Assembly: GCA_049323655.1 (NCBI GenBank)
Contig: JBMONO010000022.1
Span: 14,993 to 78,992, forward strand
Origin: Thermodesulfobacteriota bacterium
Lineage (GTDB): Bacteria > Desulfobacterota > Desulfobulbia > Desulfobulbales > SURF-16
DNA length: 64,000 bases
Direction: 5' to 3'
Shown here: positions 10,468 to 64,000 of the stretch, one piece after another
How the letters are laid out: each line of letters starts with the position of its first letter
How positions within the stretch are numbered: position 1 is the first letter of the stretch
The notes under the pieces: generated by a model
Told to the model about the DNA's origin: nothing
Databases searched by the model: none
Seen by the model: the letters and a program-made list of their open reading frames with translations, nothing else
Made by a program: the position numbers and the translations under genes

Positions 10468-10575
10468 GATTGGCCTGATTGGTCCGATTGGTCCGACTGG
10501 TCTGATTGGTCCGATTGGTCGGGCGATCTTACCAACAAGACCAATAAGACCAGTAAGACCAGTAAGACCAAAAAT
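10468..10575. repeat. inverted arrays of 9-bp tandem repeats filling the glmM-tlyA spacer
   Basis: Six units of GAYTGGYCN (10468-10521), a 9-nt spacer, then five units of ACCARYAAG (10531-10575). The two arms are imperfect reverse complements (ATTGGTC / GACCAAT). Confidence 0.85.
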
Positions 10576-11439: not shown

Positions 11440-11907
11440 ATGAAAAAAACATTATCCGTCCTATCCCGCCGTTTTGCCGCCGGTCTCGGCTTTTCCCTGC
11501 TCTCCCTTTTCTTCACCGTATCGGTATTCGCCGCCGAATATGTCAGTGTCATCAAGGACGGCGTCAATATCCGTTCCGGCCCGGGCACCGATAGCGAGGT
11601 GCACTGGGAGGTTTTTAAGGATTTTCCCCTCAAGGTCGTGCAGCGCAAAGACCAGTGGGCGAAAATCGAGGACTTTGAAGGCGACGGCGGCTGGATCCAT
11701 GCATCGCTGGTCAGCGACAAGAAGACCGTCATCGTCAAGGTGAAAAAGGCCAACATCAGGGTCGGTCCCGGGGAAAATTACGAAATCGTTGCCTCCGCTC
11801 TCTACGGCGTCGTCTTTAATCAGGGGAAAACCCAGGGTGACTGGGTTGAGATCAGCCATGCCGACGGCACCAAGGGCTGGGTTCACAAATCGCTGATCTG
11901 GCCGTAA
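11440..11907 (+). CDS. secreted protein with two bacterial SH3 domains
   Basis: Signal peptide (FSLLSLFFTVSVFA). Two repeats of the pattern VNIRSGPG...W..V...GW.H.SL. Confidence 0.7.
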   Translation: MKKTLSVLSRRFAAGLGFSLLSLFFTVSVFAAEYVSVIKDGVNIRSGPGTDSEVHWEVFKDFPLKVVQRKDQWAKIEDFEGDGGWIHASLVSDKKTVIVKVKKANIRVGPGENYEIVASALYGVVFNQGKTQGDWVEISHADGTKGWVHKSLIWP

Positions 11908-12228
11908 GCGACCTTCTCTTCCCCTTGCCCTCCGCTCCGAGTGCCGCCACCGGGTCGGCACTCGGCCTCCTTCTCTTCCCCATCCGTCCTTTTTGTCAGC
12001 CACCCCTGTACCACAATGTGCACAACAGTCTTGACAGTGTCATTCTTCCTGCGTTATCAGAACAGACATCGCCGTCGGTGCGTTGGCGAAAACGTTTTTC
12101 GGGATGGTGCAGGCGGCCGCCCAGCCCTAATACATAAGCGAAGGGCACCATGACCTCGACGAGCACATCGCCGCTGCCTGGCCGCTGTTCGTCACACAAT
12201 TGTCCGATAAATCAAGGAGGCACTGAGA

Positions 12229-12915
12229 ATGACAGTAACGCCAGATCCGGGCGGCAGAGGATCGCACGAATCGCTTCCGGAAAAATTTGCCATTTCCGAA
12301 GAAGACATCTATGCCGCGATGAAGGAAATTCCCGGCTATCTCGACATCACTCCCGGTGATTTCCGAGAACTCTACGCCCATTCCTATCGCCATGCCCTGG
12401 AGCGACTCACCAATTCGACGCGGACCGCCGACATCATGACACACGAGGTGGTTACCGTCGAGCTGACCACGCCGCTTTACGAGGTGGCCAAACGGATGGC
12501 AACAAAAGGCATTTCCGGGGTGCCGGTGCTGGACCGCAGTCAGCGGCTCGCGGGGATGATCTCGGAACGGGATTTTCTCCGTCACATGGGGGCAGAACAG
12601 GCATCCTTCATGGCCGTCATCGCCGCCTGCCTGGTGGGCAAGGGATGCGCGGCCCTGGGCATTCGCAAGGGAGTGGCGGCTGATATCATGACCAGTCCGG
12701 CTCGCTCCATCGGCCCGACAGCCACCCTGGCCGAGGCAGCGGCCACCCTGACTGACAATAAAATCAACCGCCTGCCGGTCCTCGATGAAGGGGGCAGACT
12801 GCTCGGCATTCTGACCCGGACCGATCTGATGCGGGCCCATGTGCTGGCTCCGGCTCCTGCCGAACAGGAAAAATCAGACAAGAAGGAGGCGTCATGCGCT
12901 ACTTCGACAAGATGA
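12229..12915 (+). CDS. CBS domain pair protein
   Basis: Two CBS-like units (IMTHEVVTV...GVPVLD... and IMTSPARSI...RLPVLDEGGRLLGILTRTDL). Overlaps the following HPP gene. Confidence 0.7.
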   Translation: MTVTPDPGGRGSHESLPEKFAISEEDIYAAMKEIPGYLDITPGDFRELYAHSYRHALERLTNSTRTADIMTHEVVTVELTTPLYEVAKRMATKGISGVPVLDRSQRLAGMISERDFLRHMGAEQASFMAVIAACLVGKGCAALGIRKGVAADIMTSPARSIGPTATLAEAAATLTDNKINRLPVLDEGGRLLGILTRTDLMRAHVLAPAPAEQEKSDKKEASCATSTR

Positions 12916-13430
12916 AGGGCTCCACCACCAGCCCCCCCGGCCCCGGCGCGCGGGAAATCGCCTGGTCGTGGCTCGGCGCCTTCCTCGGTATCGCCGCGGT
13001 GGCGCTTGCTCATTACCAGATCCTGGCCGAACGTGACCTTCTCCTCATCATCGGCAGCTTCGGCGCCTCGGCGGTGCTGATCTACGGAGCGATCAAAAGC
13101 CCGCTGGCCCAGCCCCGCAACCTTATCGGCGGCCATGTCCTCTCCGCCGTTATCGGTGTTTTCTGCTTTCAGACCTTCCAGGGCGAGACCTGGCTCGCCG
13201 CCTCCCTGGCCGTGGCCACCGCCATCGCCGTCATGCATGCCACCCGCACCCTCCATCCACCCGGCGGCGCCACCGCCCTCATCGCCGTCATCGGCGGCGA
13301 CCAGGTGCACAGGCTAGGCTACCTCTATGTCCTCATGCCGGTGGCCCTGGGGGCGTTCATCATGCTCGTTGTCGCCCTGCTGATCAACAACATCCCCAAA
13401 ACGAGAAAATATCCGGAATTCTGGTTGTAA
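12894..13430 (+). CDS. HPP family membrane protein
   Basis: Four to five TM segments and the eponymous HPPGGATALIAV motif. Confidence 0.8.
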   Translation: MRYFDKMKGSTTSPPGPGAREIAWSWLGAFLGIAAVALAHYQILAERDLLLIIGSFGASAVLIYGAIKSPLAQPRNLIGGHVLSAVIGVFCFQTFQGETWLAASLAVATAIAVMHATRTLHPPGGATALIAVIGGDQVHRLGYLYVLMPVALGAFIMLVVALLINNIPKTRKYPEFWL

Positions 13431-15407: not shown

Positions 15408-16555
15408 CGGCTCTCTCCGACGAGGCCCTCGACAACCCGGATGCGACTGCGGGAAGAGAGCGCCCTTTCACTGTAAAGCACCACCTGATCACCGGCGGCA
15501 AGACCAGCGAGGACCTGCACCCGACCGTCGAGATCGGTCATCCCGATGGTGACCGGCGTGAAACGGAGATCATCGCCAACGACCTTCCAGACCCCGCGAC
15601 GGCCGGCCTCGCTCAGCACCGCGGCATTGGGAATGACCGGCGCGGCCGGCAGATCGGGCAGAGATACGGTGACCTCGGCCAGTTCGCCCAGCGGCGGCAA
15701 CGGGTCGGGCAGATCGGCAAAGACGACCTTGGCCAGCATCTCCTCGGTCACCGCGTCGGCCAGGGGCTCCACCCGCAGGAGCCGACCAGCGAGCGCCTCG
15801 TCCGAACGGGAACGCAGGATAATCTCGGCGGCACGGTCAGGGGCCAACCCCCGGGCCTGCATCTGGTCAAAACGGACATTGACCCACAGGCTGGCCGGAT
15901 CGATGCACTGCACCACGGTCTGCCCCGCCACCACCGTGCTGCCCGGCTCGACCTCGCGGGCCGCCACCAGACAGGCAACCGGGGCAAGCAGCCGCAGATC
16001 GCGACGCTGGGCCGCCAGGGCCTGTTGCTCGGCGACAAGGCGGGCCACCTCCTGCCTGGCCGCGGCCCGGCCCGCCTCGGCCAGCCGCAGTTCATGCCGC
16101 CGGGCCGCGGCCAGCTCCTCGCTCACCGATTGTACCTGCAAGAGAAGTTCATAACGGTTTGCCTCCCGCCGGGCATGATTTTCGCGGGCCTCGGCCTCAA
16201 CAAGCTGGGCGCGGGCCCGTTCCAGGGCCGCCTCCTGGGCCCGGATCCGTTCATCGAGATCCACCGGCTCCATCTCGCCAAGCACCTGGCCGGCCGCCGC
16301 CCGGTCGCCCACCTGGACATCAAGGCGCATGAGCCGGCCGGCCATTGTCGGACCGATCCGGTAGGTATAACGGGCCTCAACCGTACCGATGCCGAACAGG
16401 GCGGGCGCGAGGGCCTGCTTTTCCACGGTGGCCAGGGTGACCGCCACCGGCGCGAGCGGACCGGAGCGGATGGCGACAAAGACAAAGAGGATAAGCAGGG
16501 GAATGAGAACAGCGAGCAGGGCCAGGGTGCGTCGTTGGCTGGTCGGGGTTGTCAT
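15404..16555 (-). CDS. efflux periplasmic adaptor subunit (HlyD/membrane fusion protein family)
   Basis: N-terminal TM, biotinyl/lipoyl-like segments flanking a long Ala/Arg/Glu coiled coil, and a beta-barrel C-terminus. Operon context supports the call. Confidence 0.8.
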   Translation of the reverse strand: MTTPTSQRRTLALLAVLIPLLILFVFVAIRSGPLAPVAVTLATVEKQALAPALFGIGTVEARYTYRIGPTMAGRLMRLDVQVGDRAAAGQVLGEMEPVDLDERIRAQEAALERARAQLVEAEARENHARREANRYELLLQVQSVSEELAAARRHELRLAEAGRAAARQEVARLVAEQQALAAQRRDLRLLAPVACLVAAREVEPGSTVVAGQTVVQCIDPASLWVNVRFDQMQARGLAPDRAAEIILRSRSDEALAGRLLRVEPLADAVTEEMLAKVVFADLPDPLPPLGELAEVTVSLPDLPAAPVIPNAAVLSEAGRRGVWKVVGDDLRFTPVTIGMTDLDGRVQVLAGLAAGDQVVLYSERALSSRSRIRVVEGLVGESR

Positions 16556-50472: not shown

Positions 50473-50786
50473 CCATGAAGAAAAAATCCCTTTCCAGTAA
50501 ACAGATCCGCTACCTGCGCGGCCTCGGCCATCACCTGGAGCCGCTGGCCATGATCGGTCAGCACGGCCTGACCGCCGAGGCGGTGGAGGCGGTCCAGGCG
50601 GTGCTGACCGCCCATGAGCTGGTCAAGGTCAAGATCCAGAACACCGCCACCCTGGAGCGCCACGAGGCGGCCACCGCCCTGGCAACCAAAACCGGCGCCG
50701 CCCTCGTCCAGGTCATCGGCCGCTGCGTCCTGCTCTACAAGGCCAACAAGGACATCCGCCAAGACAAACGCATCGTCCTGCCGTAA
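50469..50786 (+). CDS. yhbY: ribosome assembly RNA-binding protein YhbY (CRM domain)
   Basis: LSSKQIRYLRGLGHHL.P...IG..GLT..V...V...L..HELVKVK pattern. Confidence 0.85.
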   Translation: MTMKKKSLSSKQIRYLRGLGHHLEPLAMIGQHGLTAEAVEAVQAVLTAHELVKVKIQNTATLERHEAATALATKTGAALVQVIGRCVLLYKANKDIRQDKRIVLP

Positions 50787-50800
50787 GGAAGGCGCCCGCC

Positions 50801-51655
50801 ATGACCTCGCCCCGCAGAAAACTGGAAACCCTGCTGACGGGCGGTGAGCTGCTCCTCATGCCCTGCTGCTATGACGCCCTCTCCGGCCTGCTCGTCGAAC
50901 AGGCCGGCTTTCCCCTCACCTTCATGAGCGGCTTTGCCGTCAGCGCCGCCCGCCTCGGCCTGCCGGACACCGGCCTCATCTCCTACGGCGAGATGGTCGA
51001 GCAGGGCCGCGCCATCTGCGAACGGGTCAAGATTCCGGTCATCGGCGACGCCGACACCGGCTACGGCAACGCGGTCAACGTCAAGCGGACCATCCGCGGA
51101 TACGCGGCCGCCGGTTTTGCCTGCGCCATGATCGAGGATCAGCTCATGCCGAAACGGTGCGGCCACACCAGCGGCAAGATGGTGGTGGAGCGCGGCGAGG
51201 CCCTGGCCCGCATCCGGGCCGCGGTGGATGCCCGGGAAGAAGGGGCGGACATCCTCGTCATGGCCCGCACCGACGCCCGCGCCACCCACGGCATGGAAGA
51301 GGCCCTTGCGCGCTGCCGCGCCTTTGTCGATCTCGGCGCGGACATCGTCTTTCTCGAAGCCCCCGAATCGGAGCCGGAGATGGAACGCTTCTGCCGGGAG
51401 ATTGCCGGCCCGAAGATGGCCAACATGCTCCAGCACGGCAAAACGCCGCTGCTGACGCCCGACCGGCTTGCGGCCATGGGCTACACCATCGCCGCCTACC
51501 CGCTCACCCTGCTCAGTTCGGCGGTTTCCGCCATGCAGGAGGCTCTTGCCGCCCTGGGCCGGGGCAGTTATCCGGAACATATCGACTTTGCCGGCCTGCG
51601 GCAGATTGTTGGTTTTTCCGACTACGATGAGGAGGCGCACCGTTATGCCGACTGA
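50801..51655 (+). CDS. isocitrate lyase/PEP mutase superfamily protein (methylisocitrate lyase / carboxy-PEP mutase-like)
   Basis: GDADTGYGNAVNV, IEDQ..PKRCGH and VMARTDA motifs. Confidence 0.8.
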   Translation: MTSPRRKLETLLTGGELLLMPCCYDALSGLLVEQAGFPLTFMSGFAVSAARLGLPDTGLISYGEMVEQGRAICERVKIPVIGDADTGYGNAVNVKRTIRGYAAAGFACAMIEDQLMPKRCGHTSGKMVVERGEALARIRAAVDAREEGADILVMARTDARATHGMEEALARCRAFVDLGADIVFLEAPESEPEMERFCREIAGPKMANMLQHGKTPLLTPDRLAAMGYTIAAYPLTLLSSAVSAMQEALAALGRGSYPEHIDFAGLRQIVGFSDYDEEAHRYAD

Positions 51656-52421
51656 TCCCCTGCCTTTGCTGCTGCTCACCAATGACGACGGCGTCCATGC
51701 CCCGGGTCTGCGCCTGTTGCGCGACGGCATGCGGGATCGCTTCCGGCCGGTCATCGTTGCCCCGGACCGCGACAACAGCGCGGTCAGCCACTCCCTTTCC
51801 CTGCAGCGGCCGCTGATGGTCAAGGAGGTGGCGGAGGACATCTTTGCGGTGAACGGCACCCCGGCCGACTGCATCACCCTGGCCCTGGAAAAGATTCTGC
51901 CGCTGCGGCCACGCCTCATCATCTCCGGCATCAACGAGGGGGCGAACCTCGGCCACGACATCAGCTACTCCGGCACCGTGTCGGCGGCCAAGGAGGGGAC
52001 GATCCGCGGGGTGCCCTCCTTGGCCCTCTCCCTCTGCGGCGACCCTCCCTATCACTTTCCAACCGCACTTATCTGCGCCCGGCGGCTGGCCAAACTGATC
52101 CTTGCCCACGGCCTGCCGGACGACTGCTATCTCAACATCAATGTTCCCAATCTGGCCATGGAAGAGATCAGCGGCGTCACCATCACCCGCCAGGGACGAC
52201 GGATGTACGAAAACGCGGTTCAGGAGCTGACCGACCCGTGGGGCCGCCCCTGCTTCTGGATCGGCGGCGGCAGCCCCTCCCGGGAACGGGGACCGGGCAC
52301 CGACTCCTACGAGACCGAACGCCGCGCCGTCTCCGTCACCCCCATCCACCTCGATCTCACCAACTACGACGCCCTGGCCGCCCTGCAGGAATCGTGGACG
52401 GACAGGCTGACCAACGACTGA
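51645..52421 (+). CDS. surE: 5'/3'-nucleotidase SurE
   Basis: LLLTNDDGVHAPG N-terminus, SGINEGANLG and YSGTVSAA. Start set at MPTDPL, with GAGGAGG upstream. Confidence 0.9.
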   Translation: MPTDPLPLLLLTNDDGVHAPGLRLLRDGMRDRFRPVIVAPDRDNSAVSHSLSLQRPLMVKEVAEDIFAVNGTPADCITLALEKILPLRPRLIISGINEGANLGHDISYSGTVSAAKEGTIRGVPSLALSLCGDPPYHFPTALICARRLAKLILAHGLPDDCYLNINVPNLAMEEISGVTITRQGRRMYENAVQELTDPWGRPCFWIGGGSPSRERGPGTDSYETERRAVSVTPIHLDLTNYDALAALQESWTDRLTND

Positions 52422-52449: not shown

Positions 52450-53766
52450 TCAGGGAATGGTGGCGGCCGACGGCCGCCGCACTTGCAGGATGACGGTCGC
52501 AGCGCCGACAAAAAGCACGGCACCGATCAGACAGGCAGCCGTATAGAGGGAGGGGTTGATGGTCGGCAGCCCTGCCGGCCCGGCCTCGCCCATCGCCGGC
52601 AGATTACCGGTGATCAGCCAGGCGGCGCGCAGGAAGACGAGAAACAGGACAAACAGCCAGAGCGTAAGGGCCATTACGGTTGCCAGCGGCCGCGACGGCG
52701 CCAGAACAAAGGAACGGAGCTGATAGCGGATCAGCGCCGGGGGCGGCCGCTCCCCTTCCTGGTCAAACAACTGCCGGAGCAGGGCCTGCTGGCTTACCGC
52801 CTGCTGGATGACCACAGCGCATTTGCCGACCAGGGCGACGAGCAGAAAGGGAAAGAGGGTGATGAGATCGGTCATCCTGAGCGGCAGCGGCCCGAAGGGG
52901 GACTCGATGGCCTTGAGCCGCTCGCCCAGCAGGGCGATCTGGGCCCGGGCAGCAGCGATCGCCTCCTTCAGGGCAACGAGCTTTTCTTCCTGGCTGTGCC
53001 GCTCGCGGCTGGTCGCGGCCAGCAGTTCACCGACCTTGTCGGCCAGCGGGGCAAAGGCCGCCTCCAGGGCGCCGCGCAGTTCGGCGGCCACGTCCACCTT
53101 GCCGCCGCTGCCGCCATAGGAGCGCCAGAAGTGCGGATCAATGGCGTCGATGGTTGCCTTGACCGTGTCGGTCGCCGTCCGGGAGATCTCTTGCAGCGCA
53201 CGGGCGTTGCCCTTCTCCCCCTGGTCGAGCAGCGCCACCGGCTTGACCACCCTCTCCTCCAGCTCCGCCAGCAAGCCGGCAAACCATCTATTGATATACC
53301 AGCCGACCCCTGCCTCGAAGTCGGTGATCTCGGCAGGCACGGCGATCATGTCCGGCGGGGCTTCCTGCTGCATATACTGATTAAACTGATAGACGGGCGG
53401 CATGCCGTCGGCAGGCTGACCGGCGCGGCCCGACCGGCGCCGGTCGAGGCTGGCGGCGATTTCCGGCAGGGCGCTGCGGAGCTGGTCCGGGAACCGCTGC
53501 AGGGCATCGCGTATTTGCTGGAGGGCGTCGGCAACGGACTGGTGCGCGACCCGGATTCTTTCCTCTTCCGCCAGCAGCGTTGTGATTGACTGCTCCATGG
53601 CCGGCAGGGCATCCTGCAATGCCTGCTCCTGCTTTTTATAGAGGAAATAGGGCTCGATGACGTAACAGTGGACGGCCAGGGCAAACAGGAGACCGATCAG
53701 AACAAGGCGGTTGATCTCCCGCACGCCGGCTCGATACTCATTGAGAACAGGATCAGCTGCCGCCAT
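52450..53766 (-). CDS. hypothetical membrane protein with central coiled-coil region
   Basis: One TM after MAAADP..., a long helical region, and three C-terminal TM segments. Start set at ATG 53766, preceded by GAGGAGGGAAG. No family recognised. Confidence 0.5.
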   Translation of the reverse strand: MAAADPVLNEYRAGVREINRLVLIGLLFALAVHCYVIEPYFLYKKQEQALQDALPAMEQSITTLLAEEERIRVAHQSVADALQQIRDALQRFPDQLRSALPEIAASLDRRRSGRAGQPADGMPPVYQFNQYMQQEAPPDMIAVPAEITDFEAGVGWYINRWFAGLLAELEERVVKPVALLDQGEKGNARALQEISRTATDTVKATIDAIDPHFWRSYGGSGGKVDVAAELRGALEAAFAPLADKVGELLAATSRERHSQEEKLVALKEAIAAARAQIALLGERLKAIESPFGPLPLRMTDLITLFPFLLVALVGKCAVVIQQAVSQQALLRQLFDQEGERPPPALIRYQLRSFVLAPSRPLATVMALTLWLFVLFLVFLRAAWLITGNLPAMGEAGPAGLPTINPSLYTAACLIGAVLFVGAATVILQVRRPSAATIP

Positions 53767-54096
53767 CTTCCCTCCTCGGCTTGCTCTTCCAGTTGTCCAG
53801 CGCAAAAGGGCGCACCGTCCCGATCTGGTGCACTTTTCTTCCGTTTTCGCGCGATGATTTTCCTCATCTCCTTCAAGGGTCACCCATTCATTCGTCATCG
53901 TCAAGCGAAAACTCCTGCCGACAGGGAAAACGGCGCTCCCGACGCCAAGGGGCAATCGGCTCACGCCGACGCCGGTAATGCCACCCTGGCCCACACGCAC
54001 TATTATTTTCTTTTTTTGAAAATTGATGGTCTCGCAAACCCGCAAACCATGGCAGGCGTGAAAGTGAAAACAACGAGTTACAAAACACGGACAGGC

Positions 54097-54120
54097 GGAA
54101 TCGTGGTTTTTTACGATTCC
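54097..54120. promoter_or_regulatory. 8-bp perfect inverted repeat in the divergent cas6 upstream region (possible operator or hairpin)
   Basis: ggaatcgt-ggtttttt-acgattcc. Single copy. Confidence 0.25.
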
Positions 54121-54268
54121 GACAAAATTTTGCTTTGCTTTTAGCGAATCCATTTGTTAATGATACTTTGCTAGTTAGGACAACACATTTTTCACGGAAG
54201 AGGTGACGACCTTCTCAACCCTCTTCTCCCCCGCCACTGAAAAACCCGGACCGGGCAAGGGGGTGTTC

Positions 54269-55216
54269 ATGCTGGTTGGCAGGTATCTTTTTCATTGCCG
54301 GTTCACCACAGAGGCGCGCTTGCCGGCCTTCAAGGGTTCCACCCTGCGCGGCGCCTTCGGCCACGCCCTGAAAAGGGTGGTCTGCGCCCTGCGCCGCAAA
54401 ACCTGCGCCGATTGCCTGCTCTCCACCTCCTGTGTTTATTCCCTGGTTTTTGAAAACCCGGCCGGTCCGCCGGACAAATCAGCAAACGACCTCCCGGCCA
54501 AAACCCTCGGTCGCCCTCATCCGTATGTGCTGCAGCCGCCCCTTGACCACCGCCGCGCCTACGAAACCGGCGAGGCCTTCTCCTTCGGCCTCGCCCTGTT
54601 CGGCCCGGCCAACGACTTCCTGCCCCATCTGGTCTACGCAGTGGAACGGATGGGTGAAACCGGCCTGGGCCGGGGCGGGAAAAACGGCCGGAGCCGCTTC
54701 ATGCTTGAGGCCGTGGAGAGCCGGGGCGTCCTGCTCTACGACGGCGCCGCCAAAACCCTGCGCCAGGGCCATGAATTGACCAGCCACGACCTGCAGCCGC
54801 CGGCCGCCGGACCGCTCGATTCCCTGACCGTTCGGCTCCTCACCCCGCTGCGGCTCAAACACCACAACCGGTTCCAGCAGACCCTGCCCTTCCACCTGCT
54901 GATCCGCGCCGCCCTGCGCCGCATCGCCGGCCTGGAAGAGGCTTACGGCCAAGGGGAGCCGCCCCTCGATTACCGGGGGTTGGTGAAACGAGCCGAACAG
55001 GTGGTCATTAGGCAGAGCGATTGCCGCTGGGTGGAGATCGAGCGCTACAGCAACCGCCAGCAGACCGGCATGCTGATCGGCGGCCTGCTGGGGGAGCTGG
55101 TCTATGAAGGAGAGATGGCCGAGTTCCTGCCGCTGCTGAAATACTGCGAGGTAACCCATCTGGGCAAGCAGACGGCGTTCGGGTTGGGGTGGGTGGAGGT
55201 GGGCCATGGGCTATGA
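54269..55216 (+). CDS. cas6: CRISPR-associated endoribonuclease Cas6 (Cys-cluster type commonly linked to type III loci)
   Basis: LPAFKGSTLRGAFGHALK, Cys cluster C-x6-C-x2-C-x5-C, HPYVLQPP, and the C-terminal glycine-rich loop HLGKQTAFGLG. Start set at MLVGRY, with GGGGG upstream. Confidence 0.8.
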   Translation: MLVGRYLFHCRFTTEARLPAFKGSTLRGAFGHALKRVVCALRRKTCADCLLSTSCVYSLVFENPAGPPDKSANDLPAKTLGRPHPYVLQPPLDHRRAYETGEAFSFGLALFGPANDFLPHLVYAVERMGETGLGRGGKNGRSRFMLEAVESRGVLLYDGAAKTLRQGHELTSHDLQPPAAGPLDSLTVRLLTPLRLKHHNRFQQTLPFHLLIRAALRRIAGLEEAYGQGEPPLDYRGLVKRAEQVVIRQSDCRWVEIERYSNRQQTGMLIGGLLGELVYEGEMAEFLPLLKYCEVTHLGKQTAFGLGWVEVGHGL

Positions 55217-55334: not shown

Positions 55335-57428
55335 ATGCCAAAAGATCTCGTGAACAACCCATTATATCGCTTCATCGAACTGGCCAGAGTGTTTCTTGAA
55401 GGAAGGGGGCTTCCCTTTCTGGGCGCTGGAGTCAGCATGAACGCCAGAGTAGTGGACGATGCGTCGCTCACGCCCACTGTTTCGTCCATGATAGAACTCC
55501 TGGTTGATGCTGTTTTTGATCGGCTCACCACTTGGGATCTTTGCGAAATTTCATACCAGCTAGGATCGTGTCCTTTTTTTTCCTGCACGTGCCCCTCCAG
55601 ACTTTGCAATTCGCCAGAATGCAAAGTGAATCCAGAATGTAAAGTGAATAAGGAAAAAATATCAAAAGAGACCTTTATTAACGGCATCAATGGCCAGCTT
55701 GGCAAACTGTGCGAAATCTTGATTCAGCGAGAATTGCTGAATCAGGCGGAAATTGTCTCAGTGCTTAGAATAAGGGACTATGCCGAACTGGCGCCTTGCC
55801 CGGCTCATTATTATCTTGCCTTCTTGGCTCAGGAAACCCTGGTCAATGAAATCATCACCACCAATTATGACTGCTGCCTGGAAAAAGCGATTTCGGCTGT
55901 GGCGGGCAAAGACTATCCGGCCGACAAACCAGATGAAAAGCAGGCGGTCAGCATCTTTAATCTGGATTCATATCGAGAATATGGAGCGCGCCGTCTCTTC
56001 CCCTATAATATTGCCACGGTACTGCGTATTTACAAAATCAACGGCTGCGCCGGCCAATTAAACAACAACCAAAGGCATGCCGACTCCATTCTTCTCACGG
56101 AACGCCAACTCCAGCACATGGATGACCGATCCTGGGCACGCGATCTGCTTTGCGACAGGGCCAGGTCACGTGCCATAGTTTTTTCCGGCTTCGGCTCGGA
56201 TGAGCCGCAGGTGCGCTTCACCGTTTTGCGCCTATTGGAGGAATTTTCACCGGATTCTCCGGGTAACAATCCGCAAAATGGGATTTGGTTGCATTTATAC
56301 TCTGAACAACGAAGCTTTTCCCAGGACCAAGTCATGCACAGCTTCTGGGGGAAAAGAGAAAGGATAGAGGCACATACTTTTTCCGGTAATGATGCATACA
56401 GAATAGACAAACTATTCAGTGAACAAGCCGGGGTTGGAAAAAATATATTCCCTGCCGATAGTTTCTGGCAGATAATTTATCAACTCGTTTTCCTTGCGTT
56501 GATCGACAGATATACCAGTCCGCCGTATCCTGGTTGGCGCTGGCTGACCGAGCTGGATGAGCAGGCAAGAGGTTTTTCAAGGAGGCACGAACTCTTGCGA
56601 TGGCTTGATCCGGCAGAGATCGGAAAATCCATACAAAGGAACCAAACAGATATTGATCTGAAGACTGATTCCCCTCCACTTCAGGTTGTTGGCTGGTTGA
56701 CCGGATTTACTGAAGTTATTCCGGGCACGCCGCCGGGAACGAAAATATCGGGTATCCCGCTTTCACTCTGGATTCGTTGTATTTTCGGCAAACCGAATCC
56801 GACAGCAGGGGTTGACTGGTACAATCCGCCGGAATGCTTTTATATCCCATTACTGCAACAAACCAATCTGGTCATCTCCCTCTTAATGTTGATTTGCTGC
56901 TTTAAGTACACGAAAAGAGAGCAGCCTCCCTTGCAAGTCAAATTTTATCCGACTGGAATGGCGGGGAAAAAACAGCCTCAATCGCCCCTTCTCTTTTTGG
57001 TCTTCCGTGGTCTTGAAATTCTATTGTGTTCTCAATTCACGCATACCTTCGCCGAACGAGGGGCACACTTTATAGCAAGTCGAACAATTCTTGCAGGTTG
57101 TTTCAATCACACTTCCTTTTTTGGTCCGGGTTTGCCAAGACAAAAATTACTGAGCCGCAATACCCTCCCCACTATCCCTAATGGGGTTGGGGAAATAAAG
57201 GTTCTCCGTTTCCTGCCCGCCCCGGTGCAGACGCTTATCCGTCTGGCATCAGCCGATGACTGCTCCGACGAAGAGCAGGATACGACCTGCCTCCAATCTT
57301 CTCAAACAATATCAGGGATGTCTTTTTTCGCCCGGGTCGTTGTTGACTTGGCAAACCGACCAACCAGGCCCCAAAGGCAGGCGAGGATAACGCGAATAGA
57401 TAATAAACAGGATAGAAATGATGAATGA
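55335..57428 (+). CDS. SIR2-like (SIR2_2 / defence-type) domain protein with a ~300-aa unassigned C-terminal region
   Basis: Rossmann motif PFLGAGVS, IITTNYD, and VFSGFGSDEP in the order typical of defence SIR2 domains. Cys-rich insert CPFFSCTCPSRLCNSPECKVNPEC. An alternative TTG start lies at 55326. Confidence 0.7.
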   Translation: MPKDLVNNPLYRFIELARVFLEGRGLPFLGAGVSMNARVVDDASLTPTVSSMIELLVDAVFDRLTTWDLCEISYQLGSCPFFSCTCPSRLCNSPECKVNPECKVNKEKISKETFINGINGQLGKLCEILIQRELLNQAEIVSVLRIRDYAELAPCPAHYYLAFLAQETLVNEIITTNYDCCLEKAISAVAGKDYPADKPDEKQAVSIFNLDSYREYGARRLFPYNIATVLRIYKINGCAGQLNNNQRHADSILLTERQLQHMDDRSWARDLLCDRARSRAIVFSGFGSDEPQVRFTVLRLLEEFSPDSPGNNPQNGIWLHLYSEQRSFSQDQVMHSFWGKRERIEAHTFSGNDAYRIDKLFSEQAGVGKNIFPADSFWQIIYQLVFLALIDRYTSPPYPGWRWLTELDEQARGFSRRHELLRWLDPAEIGKSIQRNQTDIDLKTDSPPLQVVGWLTGFTEVIPGTPPGTKISGIPLSLWIRCIFGKPNPTAGVDWYNPPECFYIPLLQQTNLVISLLMLICCFKYTKREQPPLQVKFYPTGMAGKKQPQSPLLFLVFRGLEILLCSQFTHTFAERGAHFIASRTILAGCFNHTSFFGPGLPRQKLLSRNTLPTIPNGVGEIKVLRFLPAPVQTLIRLASADDCSDEEQDTTCLQSSQTISGMSFFARVVVDLANRPTRPQRQARITRIDNKQDRNDE

Positions 57429-60135
57429 CGATGACCTCATACACTCTTTCGCCACCAACCTGCAAAAAGACGGCTGGCGTATAACTTGGGCAAAAATAAG
57501 CACGGTCGGAATTGGCCTTGAACTTGAAGCGCCAGGTGCAAGCTGGCCTGATTCTACCCCTGACAGCCTGCAACAGTTTGTCACCATTATCCGTGAAATC
57601 GCCATCCAATCCGACTTCCTGATGCCGATCCTTATCGGGTTTCCGAACATGTCGAAAGAAGCAACAAAAACCATAGCCCGCTGGCAGCGGCTTCAGGATT
57701 GGCATCAGGGAAACTTTTTTCTGGTACCATGCCGCGGTAAAAACGAAAACAAACCGGCCTTCGGACTTAAACCACTCCTGCATCCCCAGAAACCGGATCT
57801 GGCCGGGTATACGCCAAAAGCCTATACCATCGAACGTTTCATTAAGGAGTTGCAAGAGGAGCAAGATATACCGCAACATCTGGTAACGTCATTACTGTCT
57901 CACTTATACCAAGGGTTTAAATCTGCGAAACGTCTCACGGGAAGAAAAGGCTGGATATCATGGTGGGATGATTTTTTTCAGCAAAACCGGTCCGGAACAG
58001 GCCAAAAGAGCGATGAAAAGACAACCACTTCACAGAAAACCGAACTGCCTGAAGAAACCGAAAAGAGCTTCAATGATTTTGGCAGGGCAAAATCCATTTG
58101 TATTAAAAACTTCAAGGGGATAGGCAATTCAGGGCGCCTGGATCTCGATGCGGATATTGTTCTGGTTTCCGGGGCAAACGGCAACGGCAAATCAAGTTTC
58201 GTTGAGGCGCTTACCATTGCCCTCACCGGTTATCATCCCCACTTGGAAAATGATGTCCCTCAACCCCATCTTTTTCATTACAACAGCGACCATTTTTCCA
58301 TAGAACTAAAAGGCGATCAAAAAAATCTCCTTCGAGTCACGGGTCAAAATACCAATACCAACAAAGAGATAAACTTTTCCAACCGGCTGAGGATTAAAAA
58401 AAGGCACATTGAACAGGTTGAGCAATTTGCTGACGAAACCGATCCGTTACTGCTCTACCGGATGACCACATTCCTGCCGGATCACGTGGATATCCTCTTT
58501 GATGAAAAGGTTATCGGCGAGAAACCAAAACCCCACGACGACGATCCGATTTATGAGGACAGTCCGCCAAAGGCCCGTGCACTAACAGAGGTCTTTGTCC
58601 CGCTTCCCCTGCCGATCGATGCCCTGAGAAAGTCCCTTACCAAGGCAATTAAAGATATCGATGAGGAGATCGCGAAGCTCGGAAGGGAGACATCTTCCCT
58701 GCAAGAGCGGGCGACCAACATTGGCTCATTTCTGGGAAGCTTGATAAACGAACTGGAACAACGGGTCAACATGCTGCTTTCCCCCCTGGCAAGATCGCCA
58801 GTCCACTTTGCCCAGCCCCCGCAAGATTCCTCGCCGCAGTATCCTGATATCCTGAATATGTTTCTGGCAGAGCAACAGCAATTCTTGGGAAACTCACTCG
58901 GCCTCGATATTATGACATGGCCTGACACTATCAAGAATCTTCCCCGGCGACTTGAAGATTTGCTCAAAGATAAATTTCAGGACATTGATTACCAGAAACT
59001 TGAGCAGGAAAAAAAGGAGCTATCGAACAAGCTGCAGATCATTCAGGAAAAACTGGCGGAAAAACGCGAGGTAATCGAACCTGAACTCACCAGGCTGTTG
59101 GAAATCCTGCGCAGCCTTGGAAACCCTGAATTTCTTGCCATGTGCGAAAAGACACTTCGCCGGCGGGCCGGTCTCCGGCTCAATGATATCGCCACTGAAG
59201 TGGAGCTGGTAGACTCTGATAAGGCAAAACGATTCTGCCAGGTGCTCGATGAACTGATCGCCGACGAAACGTCCGTGCTTCGGGACAAGGAAAGGGAAGT
59301 CCACGAGAAGCTCAATGAAATTGAAAGCCGACTGGAACATGCGAGGCAACATAGTGAACAGCATGATAATCTCCAGCAACTGAAAAATTTTCTCGAAAAC
59401 GAAAACTCCAAAGACAACCTGGAGCTGACTGATAAATTTGTGAAGGAGTACAAAGAAAAGGCAGAGCGTGAAGAACGGCTTCGCCAGTTGAGAGAAACCC
59501 GGAATGAACGCTATCCGCTTCTTGCATTCTTGGATAAACTGGGAAGTCCTCCTGAAGATTTTCGCAAAATTTTTGAAGAGGTTTTCAACAATGTGCTCAA
59601 TCGATTCGCCCTGGCCGAGGGATTAAACCAGGCATCCATCCAAACCAATGAAAATGGAGGGTTGAAGATCGAGTCTGACGATAAAAGAGACCTGCCCTGC
59701 TTCTCCCTGGGACAGCGCTCCCAGATGGCAACGGCCTGGATGGTGACATCCAGGGAGTTGGCACGCAATTGCGAGGACATCCTGTTTCCGCACAAGATCC
59801 TCATTCTCGATGACTTATCCGCCACCTTTGACATGACCAACCTTCTGAGTCAGGCCATACTCTGGCGGCAACTTGCCTACCATCCTGACCCGCAGGAGCG
59901 ATACCAGGTGTTTATCGTTTCCCATCATGAGGAATTCACCGATCGACTGCTGGATCTGCTTTGCCCACCCGGAGAAGGCTGTTCCATGCGACTGTTGCGC
60001 TTTACCGATTGGGCGCCCAAACCAGGTCAAGGTCCCATAATCGAGTCGTACAAGGTGGAACCGTCGCCCAGCAACATGGAGCAGGCTGTCAAGGCTCTTG
60101 AAAACGGCTTCAACTGTCTGAAGGAGGTCTTATGA
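57418..60135 (+). CDS. SMC/Rad50/RecF-like ABC ATPase with long coiled coil and a ~225-aa N-terminal extension
   Basis: Walker A SGANGNGKSS (58171-58197). About 400 aa of heptad-rich E/K/L/Q sequence. Signature-like FSLGQRSQ, Walker B ILILDDLSATFD, and H-loop FIVSHHEEF. Confidence 0.75.
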   Translation: MMNDDDLIHSFATNLQKDGWRITWAKISTVGIGLELEAPGASWPDSTPDSLQQFVTIIREIAIQSDFLMPILIGFPNMSKEATKTIARWQRLQDWHQGNFFLVPCRGKNENKPAFGLKPLLHPQKPDLAGYTPKAYTIERFIKELQEEQDIPQHLVTSLLSHLYQGFKSAKRLTGRKGWISWWDDFFQQNRSGTGQKSDEKTTTSQKTELPEETEKSFNDFGRAKSICIKNFKGIGNSGRLDLDADIVLVSGANGNGKSSFVEALTIALTGYHPHLENDVPQPHLFHYNSDHFSIELKGDQKNLLRVTGQNTNTNKEINFSNRLRIKKRHIEQVEQFADETDPLLLYRMTTFLPDHVDILFDEKVIGEKPKPHDDDPIYEDSPPKARALTEVFVPLPLPIDALRKSLTKAIKDIDEEIAKLGRETSSLQERATNIGSFLGSLINELEQRVNMLLSPLARSPVHFAQPPQDSSPQYPDILNMFLAEQQQFLGNSLGLDIMTWPDTIKNLPRRLEDLLKDKFQDIDYQKLEQEKKELSNKLQIIQEKLAEKREVIEPELTRLLEILRSLGNPEFLAMCEKTLRRRAGLRLNDIATEVELVDSDKAKRFCQVLDELIADETSVLRDKEREVHEKLNEIESRLEHARQHSEQHDNLQQLKNFLENENSKDNLELTDKFVKEYKEKAEREERLRQLRETRNERYPLLAFLDKLGSPPEDFRKIFEEVFNNVLNRFALAEGLNQASIQTNENGGLKIESDDKRDLPCFSLGQRSQMATAWMVTSRELARNCEDILFPHKILILDDLSATFDMTNLLSQAILWRQLAYHPDPQERYQVFIVSHHEEFTDRLLDLLCPPGEGCSMRLLRFTDWAPKPGQGPIIESYKVEPSPSNMEQAVKALENGFNCLKEVL

Positions 60136-61325
60136 GTACACCACTGACCATTGAAATCGATCTTGCATTCACCACACCGGCCTTCCTGGGAGACGCCGAT
60201 CAGAAGGCCGCGCTGCGACCGCAATCATTCAAAGGGCTGCTTCGTTTCTGGTATAGGGCCTTGGACGGTTCTTTGGCTGAAAAAAAACAAAGGCGGGAGG
60301 ATGAGTTGTGGGGCGGAGCTGGTGATGATTTTGGTCAGTCCCCGATTCTTTTGCGACTGATTACCAGAAAACCGCCTCAAATCTACCAATGGCGCAGAGA
60401 ATCATTCACTCGCTTCACCGAGCGGGCCGGGAAGTATGATCGAAACGGCCTTCTCTATCTCGGCTTTCCTTTCACTCTGCGCGGAAATGAGCAAAGAAAC
60501 GGGCTGAGCCCCGGAACCTCTTGCACTTTTCGGGTCGTGATCCCCCGGCATAACCTCTTGGGGGAATGGCAACGAAAGGCGGTTGTTGCTACGCTATGGC
60601 TCTTCGCGGTACTGGGCTCATGCGGAAGCAGGAGTCGTCGAGGGTTCGGGAGCATGCAGGCCATGAACTGGCGCATACGCCATGGCAGCGAATCATGGCA
60701 AGATGTCTTCAACGCCTTGCCGAATCCGGGCACAATGAGCACTCCTTCAGCCTGGGATAACGGGATCAACACCGCGTTTGCGCTCTTTTATGGTGAGGGT
60801 GCGGAAGCTTGGTTTCCACGCTTTGACAATGCCGCCCATCCGCACCTCACCCATGATTTTTCGCCGATTATACTTAAGGGATTTCCGACCTGGGAGGAGG
60901 CCATGAACCATGGAGGCAGGAAGCTCCAGAATTTCCGGCAATGCCTGGAACCGGACAAATCCGCGGTGATCAAGCTGCTCGAAAATCCGCACCATGGCAC
61001 CTTCGCTCCGGGCAGGACCACCTTCGGGCTGCCGCTTAAATTTCAGTTCAGATCAAGAAAGGAACTGGGAAGCGTCACCTTTTATCCCCAGCGGCTCCAC
61101 CCCCTGGCTAAATCATCCGATCGCTTCGCCAGCCTGCTCTTTCTGAAGATCATACGGCTGGGAATGTCTTATCATCCGGTTTTTTTCCGTCTCCAGGGGG
61201 CACTCCCCGGGTTCAGGGCACCGCTGGGATGTGTGCTCACAAACAAAAAAATGGCTCTGAATCTGGACGACCCGCAAGAGAATATTCTTGACCATTTTCT
61301 TCAATCATTGGGAGGCGCGAAGTGA
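60132..61325 (+). CDS. cmr1: type III-B RAMP protein Cmr1
   Basis: N-terminal TPAFLGDAD...LRPQSFKGLLRFWYRAL, DELWGGAG and TTFGLPLKF (G-rich loop). Immediately precedes cas10/cmr2. ATGA overlap with the upstream ATPase gene, and AAGGAGG 5 nt upstream. Confidence 0.75.
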   Translation: MSTPLTIEIDLAFTTPAFLGDADQKAALRPQSFKGLLRFWYRALDGSLAEKKQRREDELWGGAGDDFGQSPILLRLITRKPPQIYQWRRESFTRFTERAGKYDRNGLLYLGFPFTLRGNEQRNGLSPGTSCTFRVVIPRHNLLGEWQRKAVVATLWLFAVLGSCGSRSRRGFGSMQAMNWRIRHGSESWQDVFNALPNPGTMSTPSAWDNGINTAFALFYGEGAEAWFPRFDNAAHPHLTHDFSPIILKGFPTWEEAMNHGGRKLQNFRQCLEPDKSAVIKLLENPHHGTFAPGRTTFGLPLKFQFRSRKELGSVTFYPQRLHPLAKSSDRFASLLFLKIIRLGMSYHPVFFRLQGALPGFRAPLGCVLTNKKMALNLDDPQENILDHFLQSLGGAK

Positions 61326-64000
61326 ACGAACAACAATTCTGGCTGCGGAAAATTCTTCAATTCCTTCATGATCCCCCAGGCAAACCTTTTGCTTTCTGGC
61401 CGAAAAGCGGCGGACATACGAACTTAGCAAAAAAAATATATACCGAGCTCTTGGGTAAACGGTATTCGTTCAGCAAGATACCAGACTTGATCGCCACCGG
61501 CGCGGATCGCCCCCTTCTCACCCTGCCGTGGGGACAAGAAGGGGGGCTGGGAACGCAATATTTCCACATTGACCCGACCGTCACCCATCCGCTCGCGAGA
61601 ACCCATCTGAAGCTTCCTTTGCCGGACAATGTAGAGGAGGTCAACAAAGATTTCATCAATGAGCTTGCCAAGTCTCAAGTAGATGCCGCTGCTGAAATGA
61701 AGTTGGCGAATATAGCGGATGCCGAAGAATTGCAAAGAGGTTTTCTTGCTCTGTGGCGGAGATTTCGCGAGGAAATTATCAATGCAAATAGCAAAAAACA
61801 ATCGTCCAGCCTGTGGGAATTCATGCCTGCCGACAGCCGCTGCCCGGATCATTCCATCTGGGAACACAACAGACTGGCAAGCGCGCTGTCTTTTGTTCCG
61901 CAAAAATTGTCGGACATGGACAAGAAGGCCCCGGATTACCCCTGGCTGTTCAGTTTCGCCCTCCAACCGGTACAGGAATTCCTCAGACAGGCACGCAAGA
62001 GCCAGGACCTCTGGGTAGGCTCCATGATCATCGCCGAACTTTCCTGGGCCGCCATGGAGCCGATCATTAAACGTTACGGGCCGGATGTCTTTGTTTATCC
62101 AGACCTCCGCGCTAATCCCAGGGCAGATATCTGGCTGTACGAAAATTACAAGGACGCTCTGCCCGACAAATACAAGAAAGCCCCGCCCGGTGACGACGCA
62201 CATCATCCAGCGACCAGGGCAGGCGTTATCCCCCATACCTTCATTGCCTTGCTTCCCTATGGATCCAAAGTTACAAGCAGCCATCTCCAGCCACTTGAAG
62301 AGTTGGCACAACTTGCAATTGACGGTGTCAGCAAGGCGTGGGAGACAATGAGCCAATACGTACAGAAATGGATGGAAAAGTCGGGCATTGTGCAGTCGAA
62401 GAGCAACCATTCCGCGTGGAACCAACTTTGGGACCATGGACACAAACACTGCCCCCTCACCCCGACCTGGGTGGCATCGCCTTGGCCGGTTGTTGAAAAA
62501 CAAGAACAATACTATTTCCCCGGCGGGGCGCTGCTGGCCCAGGACAGGGAAAAATTTTCTACACCTTCCCCAAGCGACGCCGAGGTCATCGGACGACGCA
62601 AGCAATTTCTGGGCACCTGGCTCCCGGAAAGCGTATGGACGCACTATGAGTATGTCCTGTCCGTTTTCGGCAGGACCAACAACAATCTCTTGGTGCACTC
62701 CGGTTTCGCTTACGGACCCGCGCATCACCGGGTTAAGGCGCGACACAGCCTGCGGCGGCGCTATCAAAGATTGTCTGAGTCTTCACCTGCCTCGTATGAA
62801 AAGTGCACGCTCTGTCATACCCGGCCCGCTTTACACGACGCTGTTGGTCATGAAGGAGGTAATTGCGAGAGCATCCGTGAAACCGTCCGGAAGCTGTGGA
62901 GAAACCGGGAACTCGATCCGGAGGAGCAAGGGAATGAACGGCTCTGCTCCGTCTGCAGCGTGGTCCGGTTTCTTGTCCGTTCCGAGTCGGTTCCATTTAA
63001 TACAACTTGGGTCGGTGCGGGACGTTCGCTTGACCAGGAAAAAGACAGGGATAACCGTCTGCGACCGAAGTTTCCTTCCACGGTAGCCATTGCCGCGCAG
63101 AACTATCTTGAAAAACTGGCAAGAGGATATGACGAATTCAGTGATCTGCTGGAGCGGATCGTCAACCTCCACGGAAGGTTGAATATCGACAAGTCGTCAT
63201 TTCCTAGCTCACTGCCGCGACTGGCCCGCGCACTCAAGACCCAGCCCATCGCTGAAGATTTTTTGAAGCTCGATCCGCAACTCGCCTTGTTTCCGGAAAT
63301 GGTGGAGAGCAAACGCGCCTCCGCCAAGGACAAGAACGACCCCAAGGTGCCTCTCTGGAATGAGCTGAAAAACACAGTCAAGCAATTGCGCGAACGTGCT
63401 GCTGAAAAAAAAATCGGCGCTATCCAGACTCAAATCGCGGTACTGGTCATGGACGGCGACGAGATGAGCAAGGTTCTTCTTGGTGATCCGGCCAGGATCA
63501 AATCCAAATGGAAGGATGTCATCCACCCTAGAATCGCGGATAAAATTCTGGAAAGCGACGTTTTCCGGGGCAGCGGCTGGCCGGAACTGCTCAACCTCTC
63601 CAGAACCTCCGGCCCGGCCTTGCAGGCCTTTATCAGCCGGGCACTGGCTGATTTCAGTCACCATATTGCTCCGTGGGTTGTCGAGCAGGAGTTTTCCGGC
63701 CGTTTGATTTATTGTGGCGGCGACGACCTGCTGGCCTTGCTGCCGGCCCGCGAAGCACTGGCGGCAGCCACCCGGCTCCAGGAACTGTTTTCCGCCGCCT
63801 GGGTCATCGATACCGAACCGGAGATGGAGCCTTGGTCCTGGTTACTCCAGAAAGGACATGGCGGACGCAATCCGGAAGATGCAGAAAATCGTTTTCATAT
63901 TCTCAAACCCACCGATGACCTCAAACAGCATTCAGGCCGCCTGTTGCCCATGCTCGGCAAGCATTGCAGCCTTTCCGCCGGGATCATGTACGGCCATTTC
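61322..64000 (+). CDS. cas10: Cas10/Cmr2, type III-B large subunit (3'-truncated by the window end)
   Basis: Translated by hand from GTG 61322; the frame is open for 893 codons to position 64000. FLHDPPGKP (HD motif, 61367-61372), PADSRCPDHSIWEHNRLASAL, zinc finger CTLC...CSVC, VLVMDGDEMS, and the cyclase motif YCGGDDLLAL (GGDD at 63716-63727). Confidence 0.9.
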   Translation, partial: MNEQQFWLRKILQFLHDPPGKPFAFWPKSGGHTNLAKKIYTELLGKRYSFSKIPDLIATGADRPLLTLPWGQEGGLGTQYFHIDPTVTHPLARTHLKLPLPDNVEEVNKDFINELAKSQVDAAAEMKLANIADAEELQRGFLALWRRFREEIINANSKKQSSSLWEFMPADSRCPDHSIWEHNRLASALSFVPQKLSDMDKKAPDYPWLFSFALQPVQEFLRQARKSQDLWVGSMIIAELSWAAMEPIIKRYGPDVFVYPDLRANPRADIWLYENYKDALPDKYKKAPPGDDAHHPATRAGVIPHTFIALLPYGSKVTSSHLQPLEELAQLAIDGVSKAWETMSQYVQKWMEKSGIVQSKSNHSAWNQLWDHGHKHCPLTPTWVASPWPVVEKQEQYYFPGGALLAQDREKFSTPSPSDAEVIGRRKQFLGTWLPESVWTHYEYVLSVFGRTNNNLLVHSGFAYGPAHHRVKARHSLRRRYQRLSESSPASYEKCTLCHTRPALHDAVGHEGGNCESIRETVRKLWRNRELDPEEQGNERLCSVCSVVRFLVRSESVPFNTTWVGAGRSLDQEKDRDNRLRPKFPSTVAIAAQNYLEKLARGYDEFSDLLERIVNLHGRLNIDKSSFPSSLPRLARALKTQPIAEDFLKLDPQLALFPEMVESKRASAKDKNDPKVPLWNELKNTVKQLRERAAEKKIGAIQTQIAVLVMDGDEMSKVLLGDPARIKSKWKDVIHPRIADKILESDVFRGSGWPELLNLSRTSGPALQAFISRALADFSHHIAPWVVEQEFSGRLIYCGGDDLLALLPAREALAAATRLQELFSAAWVIDTEPEMEPWSWLLQKGHGGRNPEDAENRFHILKPTDDLKQHSGRLLPMLGKHCSLSAGIMYGHF

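Follow-up and report, generated by a model that had tools for sequence, protein, structure and literature searches.

The window analysed here is a stretch of 64,000 nucleotides from the genome of a Thermodesulfobacteriota bacterium (3.56 Mb in 54 contigs), corresponding to positions 14993-78992 of its contig C22 (C22:14993-78992). This study concerns a gene of this stretch that encodes a SIR2 protein of 697 amino acids, the ATPase gene that follows it and the type III-B CRISPR operon in which both are located.

The SIR2 gene in its operon

The open reading frame (ORF) of the SIR2 gene is real and conserved across its homologs. It stands second in a compact plus-strand cluster with the order cas6, SIR2, a gene in which a middle component is fused to an ATPase, cmr1, cas10, cmr3 and cmr4, which is a type III-B operon. 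A gap of 118 bp separates it from cas6, while all junctions beyond it overlap: the start of the ATPase gene with the stop of the SIR2 gene, cmr1 with the ATPase gene, and cas10 with cmr1. The succession of cas6 and SIR2 is also present in two of the homologous loci described below (L015, L025). In the neighbouring Cas10, the GGDD cyclase motif is intact, as had been stated in an initial annotation of this DNA.

The contig terminates 160 bp beyond cmr4 (L002:5772-5932), and no start of cmr5 or cmr6 was found in these 160 bp. Possibly this genome encodes only part of the Cmr complex, or else the remaining genes were not assembled. No CRISPR array was found beside the cmr operon of the window. 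The guanine and cytosine (GC) content of the SIR2 and ATPase genes is 45-50%, as opposed to approximately 66% for cas6 and the flanking genome and 52-57% for the cmr genes, and because of these differences the operon looks mosaic and horizontally acquired. The coordinates of all features are given in Table 1.

Table 1. Positions of the genes, domains and motifs of the SIR2 locus and of related loci; positions without a prefix refer to the window.
Feature	Position	Strand	Basis or remark
cas6 (337 aa), first of cluster	54203-55216	+	Pfam CRISPR_Cas6 E=5.9e-18; PADLOC Cas6 E=1.6e-99
SIR2 gene (697 aa)	55335-57428	+	
SIR2_2 domain, residues 1-369	55335-56441	+	Pfam SIR2_2, AF2 model, Foldseek
GAGVS, residues 30-34	55422-55436	+	
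Variable Cys-rich insert including duplication	55569-55649	+	TRF; residues 79-102 = 55569-55640
TTNYD, residues 175-179 (Asn177/Asp179)	55857-55871	+	
YKINGC with Asn236 (codon 56040-56042)	56031-56048	+	catalytic-His position
SGFGSDEPQ, residues 284-292	56184-56210	+	GFGSDEPQ = 285-292, 56187-56210
Family-specific C-terminal domain, residues 370-697	56442-57428	+	separate model, no fold or family match
ATPase, whole gene (905 aa)	57418-60135	+	
Middle-component-like N-terminal region of ATPase, residues 1-224	57418-58089	+	hhalign, jackhmmer
QDWHQGNF signature	57694-57717	+	within middle-component region
SMC/Rad50-like ABC ATPase (LmuB-like), long helical middle	58090-60135	+	PADLOC, Pfam
Walker A	58171-58197	+	
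Signature-like FSLGQRSQ	59701-59724	+	
Walker B ILILDD, RecF-like	59797-59814	+	
H-loop	59917-59934	+	
cmr1	60132-61325	+	Pfam RAMPs E=3.5e-12; PADLOC Cmr1 E=1e-13; 4-nt overlap with ATPase stop
cas10/cmr2 (1073 aa)	61322-64000, continuing past window	+	Pfam Cmr2_N, Cas10 palm2; TIGR02577
Cas10 motif LHDPPGKP	61364-61387	+	
Cas10 motif GGDD	63716-63727	+	
Second type III locus of the genome (C6 locus, G000)	L097:49-2208		
C6 locus, continued	L097:5805-6953; 9570-10910; 11811-13316	-	
Second Cas10 (848 aa)	C6:~15956-16360	-	
Cmr6-TIR of relatives	L102:1765-3825	-	
Cmr6-TIR of relatives	L103:1263-3317	+	
Cmr6-TIR of relatives	L095:11428-12048	+	

The SIR2 domain and the catalytic histidine position

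The initial annotation had recognised GAGVS, TTNYD and SGFGSDEP in the order of SIR2_2 domains, and all three motifs were located in that order. Pfam matches SIR2_2 (PF13289) to residues 172-322 with an E-value of 3.8e-13. An alignment of 102 homologs was the basis of the AlphaFold (AF2) model and of the conservation counts given below, and the model of the SIR2 protein has a predicted local distance difference test score (pLDDT) of 86 and a predicted template modelling score (pTM) of 0.90. The best matches of this model in the PDB according to Foldseek are the SIR2 domains of ThsA (E=2.3e-9), KomC, DSR2, SPARSA and Avs5, with which it shares the GAGxS loop that binds nicotinamide adenine dinucleotide (NAD) and the Rossmann fold of solved SIR2_2 members; a sequence search of the PDB with the family profile gave just weak matches to sirtuins and ThsA. 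Asn177 and Asp179 are invariant in all 102 homologs and align with ITQNID of Sir2Af2 and TTNYD of SeThsA, and G285-G287, E290, P291 and Q292 are invariant as well.

The position of the catalytic His was fixed with 17 canonical SIR2_2 domains encoded by members of the same phylum, every one of which carries the motif h-[KH]-h-H-G approximately 35-70 residues after TTNYD. In the hhalign comparison of the family core with these domains (probability 98%, E=1.3e-13), YKINGC is placed on i-K-l-H-G-s, and a partial HMMER alignment to SeThsA brackets the same segment. Asn236 is the equivalent of the His, it is Asn in 102 of 102 homologs, and the family does not have the catalytic His in a K-h-H-G motif that SIR2_2 domains carry. 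The by-eye reading of Asn in place of the catalytic His in IYKINGC is thereby borne out, which cannot be said of the idea that a His in the nearby QRHAD serves as its substitute: H248 occurs in just 17 of the 102 homologs and QRHAD therefore cannot replace the catalytic His, nor is there another conserved His nearby, for which reasons this candidate was rejected. Because Asn236 is invariant throughout the alignment, the exchange of His for Asn is regarded as a fixed family trait under selection, and neither as decay nor as the oddity of a single gene.

To our knowledge, all defence SIR2 proteins that have been characterised work with a pair of Asn and His. A fixed Asn with the rest of the pocket kept would mean that this family either hydrolyses NAD+ differently or uses NAD+ otherwise. 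Since Asn177 and Asp179 are retained together with the GAGVS loop and a K-I-N-G that is strictly conserved, NAD+ is expected to be bound by the domain and turned over in a variant chemistry that requires no His. A pseudo-enzyme that serves as a sensor or scaffold by binding NAD+ or one of its derivatives, with toxicity originating, for example, from the HD nuclease of Cas10 or from the ATPase complex, is improbable: the exchange in every member and the use of His mutants of ThsA and DSR2 as inactive forms (PDB titles) are what it would predict, while the strong conservation of the whole pocket (GAGxS, TTNYD, YKINGC, GFGSDEPQ) and the invariance of N177 and D179 are not, and the loci in which the module stands alone contain no other candidate effector domain. 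Rather unlikely, though with a parallel in the class M sirtuins (SirTM), which lack the catalytic His and are protein ADP-ribosyltransferases, is another NAD+ chemistry such as ADP-ribosyl transfer to protein or nucleic acid or the synthesis of a signalling nucleotide. The invariant Asn in place of the general-base His would suit it, and sister loci pair the module with a fusion of Cmr6 and a TIR domain and in some cases with a SLOG-domain protein, TIR and SLOG both being known from NAD-derived signalling in Thoeris. However, all characterised defence SIR2 effectors that we know of deplete NAD+, and neither a TIR domain nor a homolog of the Cmr6-TIR protein of the relatives was found anywhere in the genome assembly of the window.

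Between GAGVS and TTNYD, the protein contains a variable insert with seven Cys spread over residues 64-121 and an in-frame 18-bp tandem duplication (55614-55649, PECKVN twice), which was identified with Tandem Repeats Finder (TRF). The initial annotation was right about the existence of this Cys-rich insert but not about its placement at the zinc-module site of sirtuins, as it occupies residues 79-102, before TTNYD. In sirtuins, a helical module is inserted between the GAGVS- and TTNYD-type motifs and the zinc ribbon follows the catalytic His; here there are no Cys pairs after residue 236 and hence no zinc ribbon of the canonical sirtuin type. The insert has a pLDDT of about 55 in the AF2 model and holds no or one Cys in the nearest relatives. 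A sirtuin zinc module was rejected on account of topology, low model confidence and missing conservation in near relatives. Since 51 of the 102 family members have at least four Cys in the insertion, a small metal knuckle may recur across the family as an ornament that can be dispensed with.

The C-terminal domain, the partner proteins and Lamassu

The C-terminal domain (CTD) begins at residue 370, a boundary that is supported by two Desulfobulbaceae loci (L004:10001-12051, L005:12-2122), in which SIR2 (422-429 aa) and CTD (254-275 aa) are separate adjacent ORFs, as a result of either a natural split or a frameshift. Modelled alone, the CTD reached a pLDDT of 85.5 and a pTM of 0.85 and consists of a helical half followed by a beta-rich half. 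The roughly 300 C-terminal residues had been annotated as resembling nothing recognisable, and this agrees with the searches, as neither this protein nor 26 family members gave a match to Pfam, NCBIfam or PADLOC in the CTD, and Foldseek found nothing for the confident model in the PDB (best E=0.79, TM 0.12) or BFVD. In particular, neither CARF nor SAVED was detected in residues 370-697 by sequence libraries or by Foldseek against the PDB and BFVD, and a known nucleotide-binding fold, be it CARF/SAVED or another one, was rejected for this region as nothing matched. A profile built from 27 CTDs matched 222 of 1.84e9 cluster representatives. Among the 117 new ones, a regex search found TTNYD in 92 and K-x-N-G in 90, the remainder being mostly short fragments, and all eight outlier representatives scanned against Pfam contain SIR2_2. 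As far as these sequences tell, the CTD is confined to this SIR2 family.

The ATPase encoded by the following gene has LmuB as its best PADLOC match (E=8.4e-19) and also matches AAA_23, AAA_15 and SMC_N of Pfam. It is an SMC/Rad50-like ABC ATPase with a split head, a long helical insert and intact motifs, as is LmuB; a PDB sequence search gave just weak Rad50 matches. The ATPase head begins only at about residue 225. The N-termini of such fused proteins align in hhalign with the separate middle proteins of approximately 200-280 aa from other loci (probability 99%, E=2.7e-18), both having DQDWHRGxF in common, and a jackhmmer search with the fused protein as query finds the two genes of unfused loci. 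For these two reasons, we consider the module to be a triad, the middle component of which is fused to the ATPase in the clade of the window. Most of the 60 genome loci fetched have the order SIR2, a protein of 195-285 aa and an ATPase of approximately 660-790 aa, and among loci with unfragmented downstream sequence nearly all have SIR2, middle component and ATPase; no ATPase adjoins the SIR2 gene in L041, L046 and the second copy in L026. The middle component gave nothing real in a PDB sequence search, its sole match being a designed repeat protein.

This arrangement is reminiscent of the three-gene (type II) form of Lamassu with a Sir2 effector, which is DdmABC-like and composed of LmuA-Sir2, LmuC and LmuB (10.1101/2022.05.11.491447; PMC12663957). 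The Sir2 subtype of Lamassu is known bioinformatically (bioRxiv 10.1101/2022.05.11.491447). In solved Lamassu complexes, LmuB and LmuC keep LmuA inactive until it is freed by DNA-end sensing and becomes active by oligomerising (PMC12663957; PMC12409362 addendum), and the CTDs of LmuA proteins resemble no known domain (PMC12663957). Both systems have the same order of effector with CTD, small protein and SMC-like ATPase; in both, a SIR2 effector domain precedes a CTD without known fold. The N-terminal effector with its CTD would suit the architecture of LmuA, and the middle protein, where it is a separate gene, would suit LmuC by its size and position. The expected logic of sequestration, release and abortive infection would also be alike. 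We consider it reasonably likely, with a probability of roughly 60%, that the SIR2 gene encodes the effector of a Lamassu-like (ABC-3C) three-part module inside the type III-B operon and that its CTD docks on the ATPase.

By analogy with the solved complexes, the CTD would dock the SIR2 subunit onto the assembly of middle component and ATPase and thereby keep it inactive, and such a docking role of the CTD is probable. The ATPase would sense a cue, most likely foreign DNA ends or replication structures, whereupon the SIR2 subunit would be freed and oligomerise, and the active SIR2 would consume NAD+ and abort the infection. Through its location inside the cmr operon, the module would be expressed together with the RNA-guided complex, and Cmr activity may be a trigger of the module. 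The initial annotation had named an LmuA-like docking domain as a second possibility for the C-terminal region, for which the gene triad and the exclusive pairing of the CTD with this SIR2 speak, while the fold shows no similarity to solved LmuA CTDs.

Several points weigh against the proposed assignment. The CTD is matched by neither the PADLOC model of LmuA nor a Pfam ABC-3C CTD family, and Foldseek found no solved LmuA CTD, the presence of Lamassu entries in the searched copy of the PDB being unconfirmed. The middle component has no match to LmuC of PADLOC, to the ABC-3C middle components of Pfam or to DUF6521. The CTD is not reused with other effector types, unlike the modular CTDs of LmuA. 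ThsA and DSR2 need the His for NADase activity, H171A being a dead mutant (PDB entry titles), and for this reason the His-less site may be slow, dead or devoted to other chemistry. Finally, the SIR2 tree referred to below is a quick maximum likelihood version only. Membership in Lamassu therefore rests on the ATPase match and the architecture and is not proven, because a Lamassu model is matched by the ATPase alone, the CTD is unshared, and CTD and middle protein are unlike known Lamassu parts. The family further differs from Lamassu in the invariant Asn at the catalytic His position, in the fusion of middle component and ATPase in the clade of the window, and in the location of half of its members inside type III-B cmr operons, which neither Lamassu paper mentions (PMC12663957; 10.1101/2022.05.11.491447).

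Other systems are similar in parts. The defence SIR2 NADases (ThsA of Thoeris, DSR2, SIR2-HerA/Nezha, SPARSA, Avs5, KomC) have the same SIR2_2 Rossmann fold with GAGxS and the Asn/Asp of TTNYD, and likewise a sensor or partner domain joined to SIR2. However, they possess K-h-H-G with an essential His in place of K-I-N-G, and the partner domain of the present family is not SLOG, HerA-binding, APAZ or STAND. Cas_RecF of crenarchaeal type III systems (Shah 2018, PMC6546367), an ABC ATPase of SMC/RecF type that recurs with type III modules and has small partner genes, is likewise comparable in description, but it is archaeal, has approximately 330 aa and no SIR2 partner.

Distribution and association with type III-B operons

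In 24 loci, cmr1 and cas10 directly follow the ATPase gene, with a spacing between ATPase and cmr1 that ranges from a 19-nt overlap to a 17-nt gap. These CRISPR-linked loci are the window, L003-5, L010, L012, L013, L015, L017, L021, L022, L025, L035, L042, L044, L045, L048-50, L052, the fragmented L053 and the metagenomic L093-95, and their hosts include Thermodesulfobacteriota, Myxococcota and alpha- and gamma-Pseudomonadota. Approximately 15 loci with enough flanking sequence stand alone, including those of V. cholerae, Paraburkholderia, Desulfofundulus and Idiomarinaceae. According to hhalign (98.7%, E=1.9e-16), the CTDs of such members are homologous to those of the linked ones. On the SIR2 tree, the linked state is clustered (none of 500 shuffles gave a value as low) and needs at least six changes, and the clade of the window with the fused ATPase is CRISPR-linked in seven of seven members with a support of 100. 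Judged by these comparisons, the nesting in cmr operons is genuinely conserved and not a matter of chance; it may mean co-regulation, back-up or true coupling.

One stand-alone triad is located on the chromosome of Vibrio cholerae near luxQ/luxP-like genes (L063:8001-12620) and consists of a SIR2 protein of 609 aa with the motif K-V-N-G, a protein of 207 aa and an ATPase of 723 aa. It appears in 5471 collection blocks and would be well suited as a model for laboratory work on the His-less SIR2 module.

The approximately 15 stand-alone triads, including the one of V. cholerae, and the deviating GC content of the SIR2 and ATPase genes would suit an autonomous system that is merely nested in cas operons for co-regulation or as a back-up, with no mechanistic hand-over from Cmr. 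There is a precedent in CRISIS, where whole innate systems with a Sir2 enzyme, such as Nezha (Sir2-HerA), as well as others are nested in type I-C cas operons (bioRxiv 10.1101/2024.12.27.630466). CRISIS differs from the present case in its CRISPR type, its other partners and its control by a solitary repeat unit and a crRNA-like RNA, and with the CRISPR repeat of contig C6 (see below) as query, the window showed no solitary repeat-like unit within 12 mismatches. Mere nesting is also argued against by the position of the triad, which in 24 loci belonging to three or more named phyla is fixed just 5' of cmr1 with codons that overlap, and by the complete linkage of the clade of the window. We treat mere nesting as a tentative possibility; it overlaps with the Lamassu-like reading, which allows for coupling as well as for its absence.

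The reverse view, that the triad is a dedicated output arm of a type III-B lineage, in which recognition of target RNA by Cmr licenses the release of the His-less SIR2 with its non-canonical NAD+ chemistry, is unlikely. Such a licence could consist of physical contact, DNA damage by the HD domain of Cas10, cyclic oligoadenylate (cOA), or the product of the TIR domain fused to Cmr6 in the sister loci; if true, the module would be an RNA-guided Lamassu.

The initial annotation had proposed the CTD as a candidate cOA or partner-binding sensor, given the cyclase motif of Cas10 next door and the lack of a CARF or SAVED gene. The window indeed contains no such gene, but the statement does not extend to the genome, in which contig C6 encodes Card1, a CARF protein with a nuclease, and a Csm6-type HEPN protein. 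It is very unlikely that the CTD is a new sensor of cOA made by Cas10, or of another nucleotide, and that the SIR2 protein is a classical ancillary effector of type III. Nearly all linked Cas10 proteins carry GGDD and one GGDE (none was found in the fragmented copy of L053), most of them together with LHDPPxKP; within 10 kb upstream of 14 linked loci, any given Pfam family occurs in two loci at most, and those that recur are never CARF/SAVED; moreover, a fold that matches nothing solved leaves room for a ligand pocket. All of this would be compatible with a sensor. The cOA-sensor role is nevertheless disfavoured because the CTD has no CARF/SAVED similarity in sequence or fold, because the same domain occurs in the stand-alone triads, which are without type III genes, and because the genome has Card1 and Csm6 as receivers at its second type III locus. 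The module resembles the cOA-activated type III effectors (Csm6, Card1, TIR-SAVED, Cat1) in its location in a type III locus with a cyclase-competent Cas10, and Cat1 and TIR-SAVED act on NAD+ too; it differs from them in lacking CARF/SAVED, in its occurrence in CRISPR-free operons and in requiring a middle component and an ABC ATPase as additional partners.

Lamassu with a Sir2 effector is known, whereas a His-less variant nested in type III-B appears to be new, as we found no description of it. A SIR2/SMC triad in type III-B operons is not mentioned in Shah 2018, Hoikkala 2024, Makarova 2025, Haudiquet 2025, Millman 2022 or Altae-Tran 2023, and no defence SIR2 family in which Asn takes the place of the His is described in the type III surveys and Lamassu papers compared; Krishnan 2020 (ABC-3C) was outside this comparison, and a prior mention there is possible. 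The surveys of type III accessory genes and the CRISPR classification that were compared thus do not include this module, which offers a concrete system for how CRISPR and innate abortive-infection modules cooperate. The constant place of the triad before cmr1 in 24 loci of several phyla may mean that SMC-based DNA sensing was joined with RNA-guided type III immunity more than once or a long time ago.

Two loci differ from the others. Solimonas aquatica has a SIR2 N-terminal remnant of 199 aa right before cmr1 and no ATPase (L057:9983-10582), and in a metagenome-assembled genome of Bryobacteraceae the stretch of SIR2, ATPase, cmr1 and cas10 is split over many frames (L053:9900-17800); both look like decaying copies of the linked module. 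In the nearest linked relatives, Cmr6 is fused to a TIR domain and an unassigned tail of approximately 290 aa, giving proteins of 681-686 aa (RAMPs, TIR_2 and ThsB_TIR), and these operons therefore have two NAD+-related domains each, TIR and SIR2. A literature search found no paper joining Cmr6, a TIR domain and type III. The fusion would likewise point to an NAD+-centred wiring in this lineage. Upstream of SIR2 and divergent from it, L003:6186-9841 (-) and L004:6092-9696 (-) encode a CHAT-protease protein (672/673 aa) and a calcineurin-like phosphoesterase (547/529 aa), and at L093:5316-7430 (-) and L094:3991-6105 (-) a divergent gene encodes a protein of 705 aa with a C-terminal SLOG/LOG-like domain. 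Possibly, these neighbours are further signal-responsive effectors of this type III-B lineage.

Upstream of cas6 in the window, there are two ORFs on the minus strand (52450-54153, 567 aa; 50735-51961, 408 aa), which belong to no Pfam, NCBIfam or PADLOC family. Contig C6 carries a CRISPR array, a Card1-type CARF nuclease, a Csm6-type HEPN protein, a RAMP protein and its own Cas10, and is therefore a second type III locus. For the same reason, a junction of C22, which ends after cmr4, with C6, which starts with the array, was rejected. The array contains approximately 30 copies of the 36-nt repeat GTCGTAATCCCTTCGATGATCAGGTCAATTCGGTC. Between the Card1 gene and the next ORFs of this locus (L097:7228-7841), a unit of 106 bp is repeated 5.7 times with 94% identity, and this repeat is itself composed of 9- and 18-bp sub-repeats (TAAAGTGCC / ACTTCAAGTACTTTAAGC).

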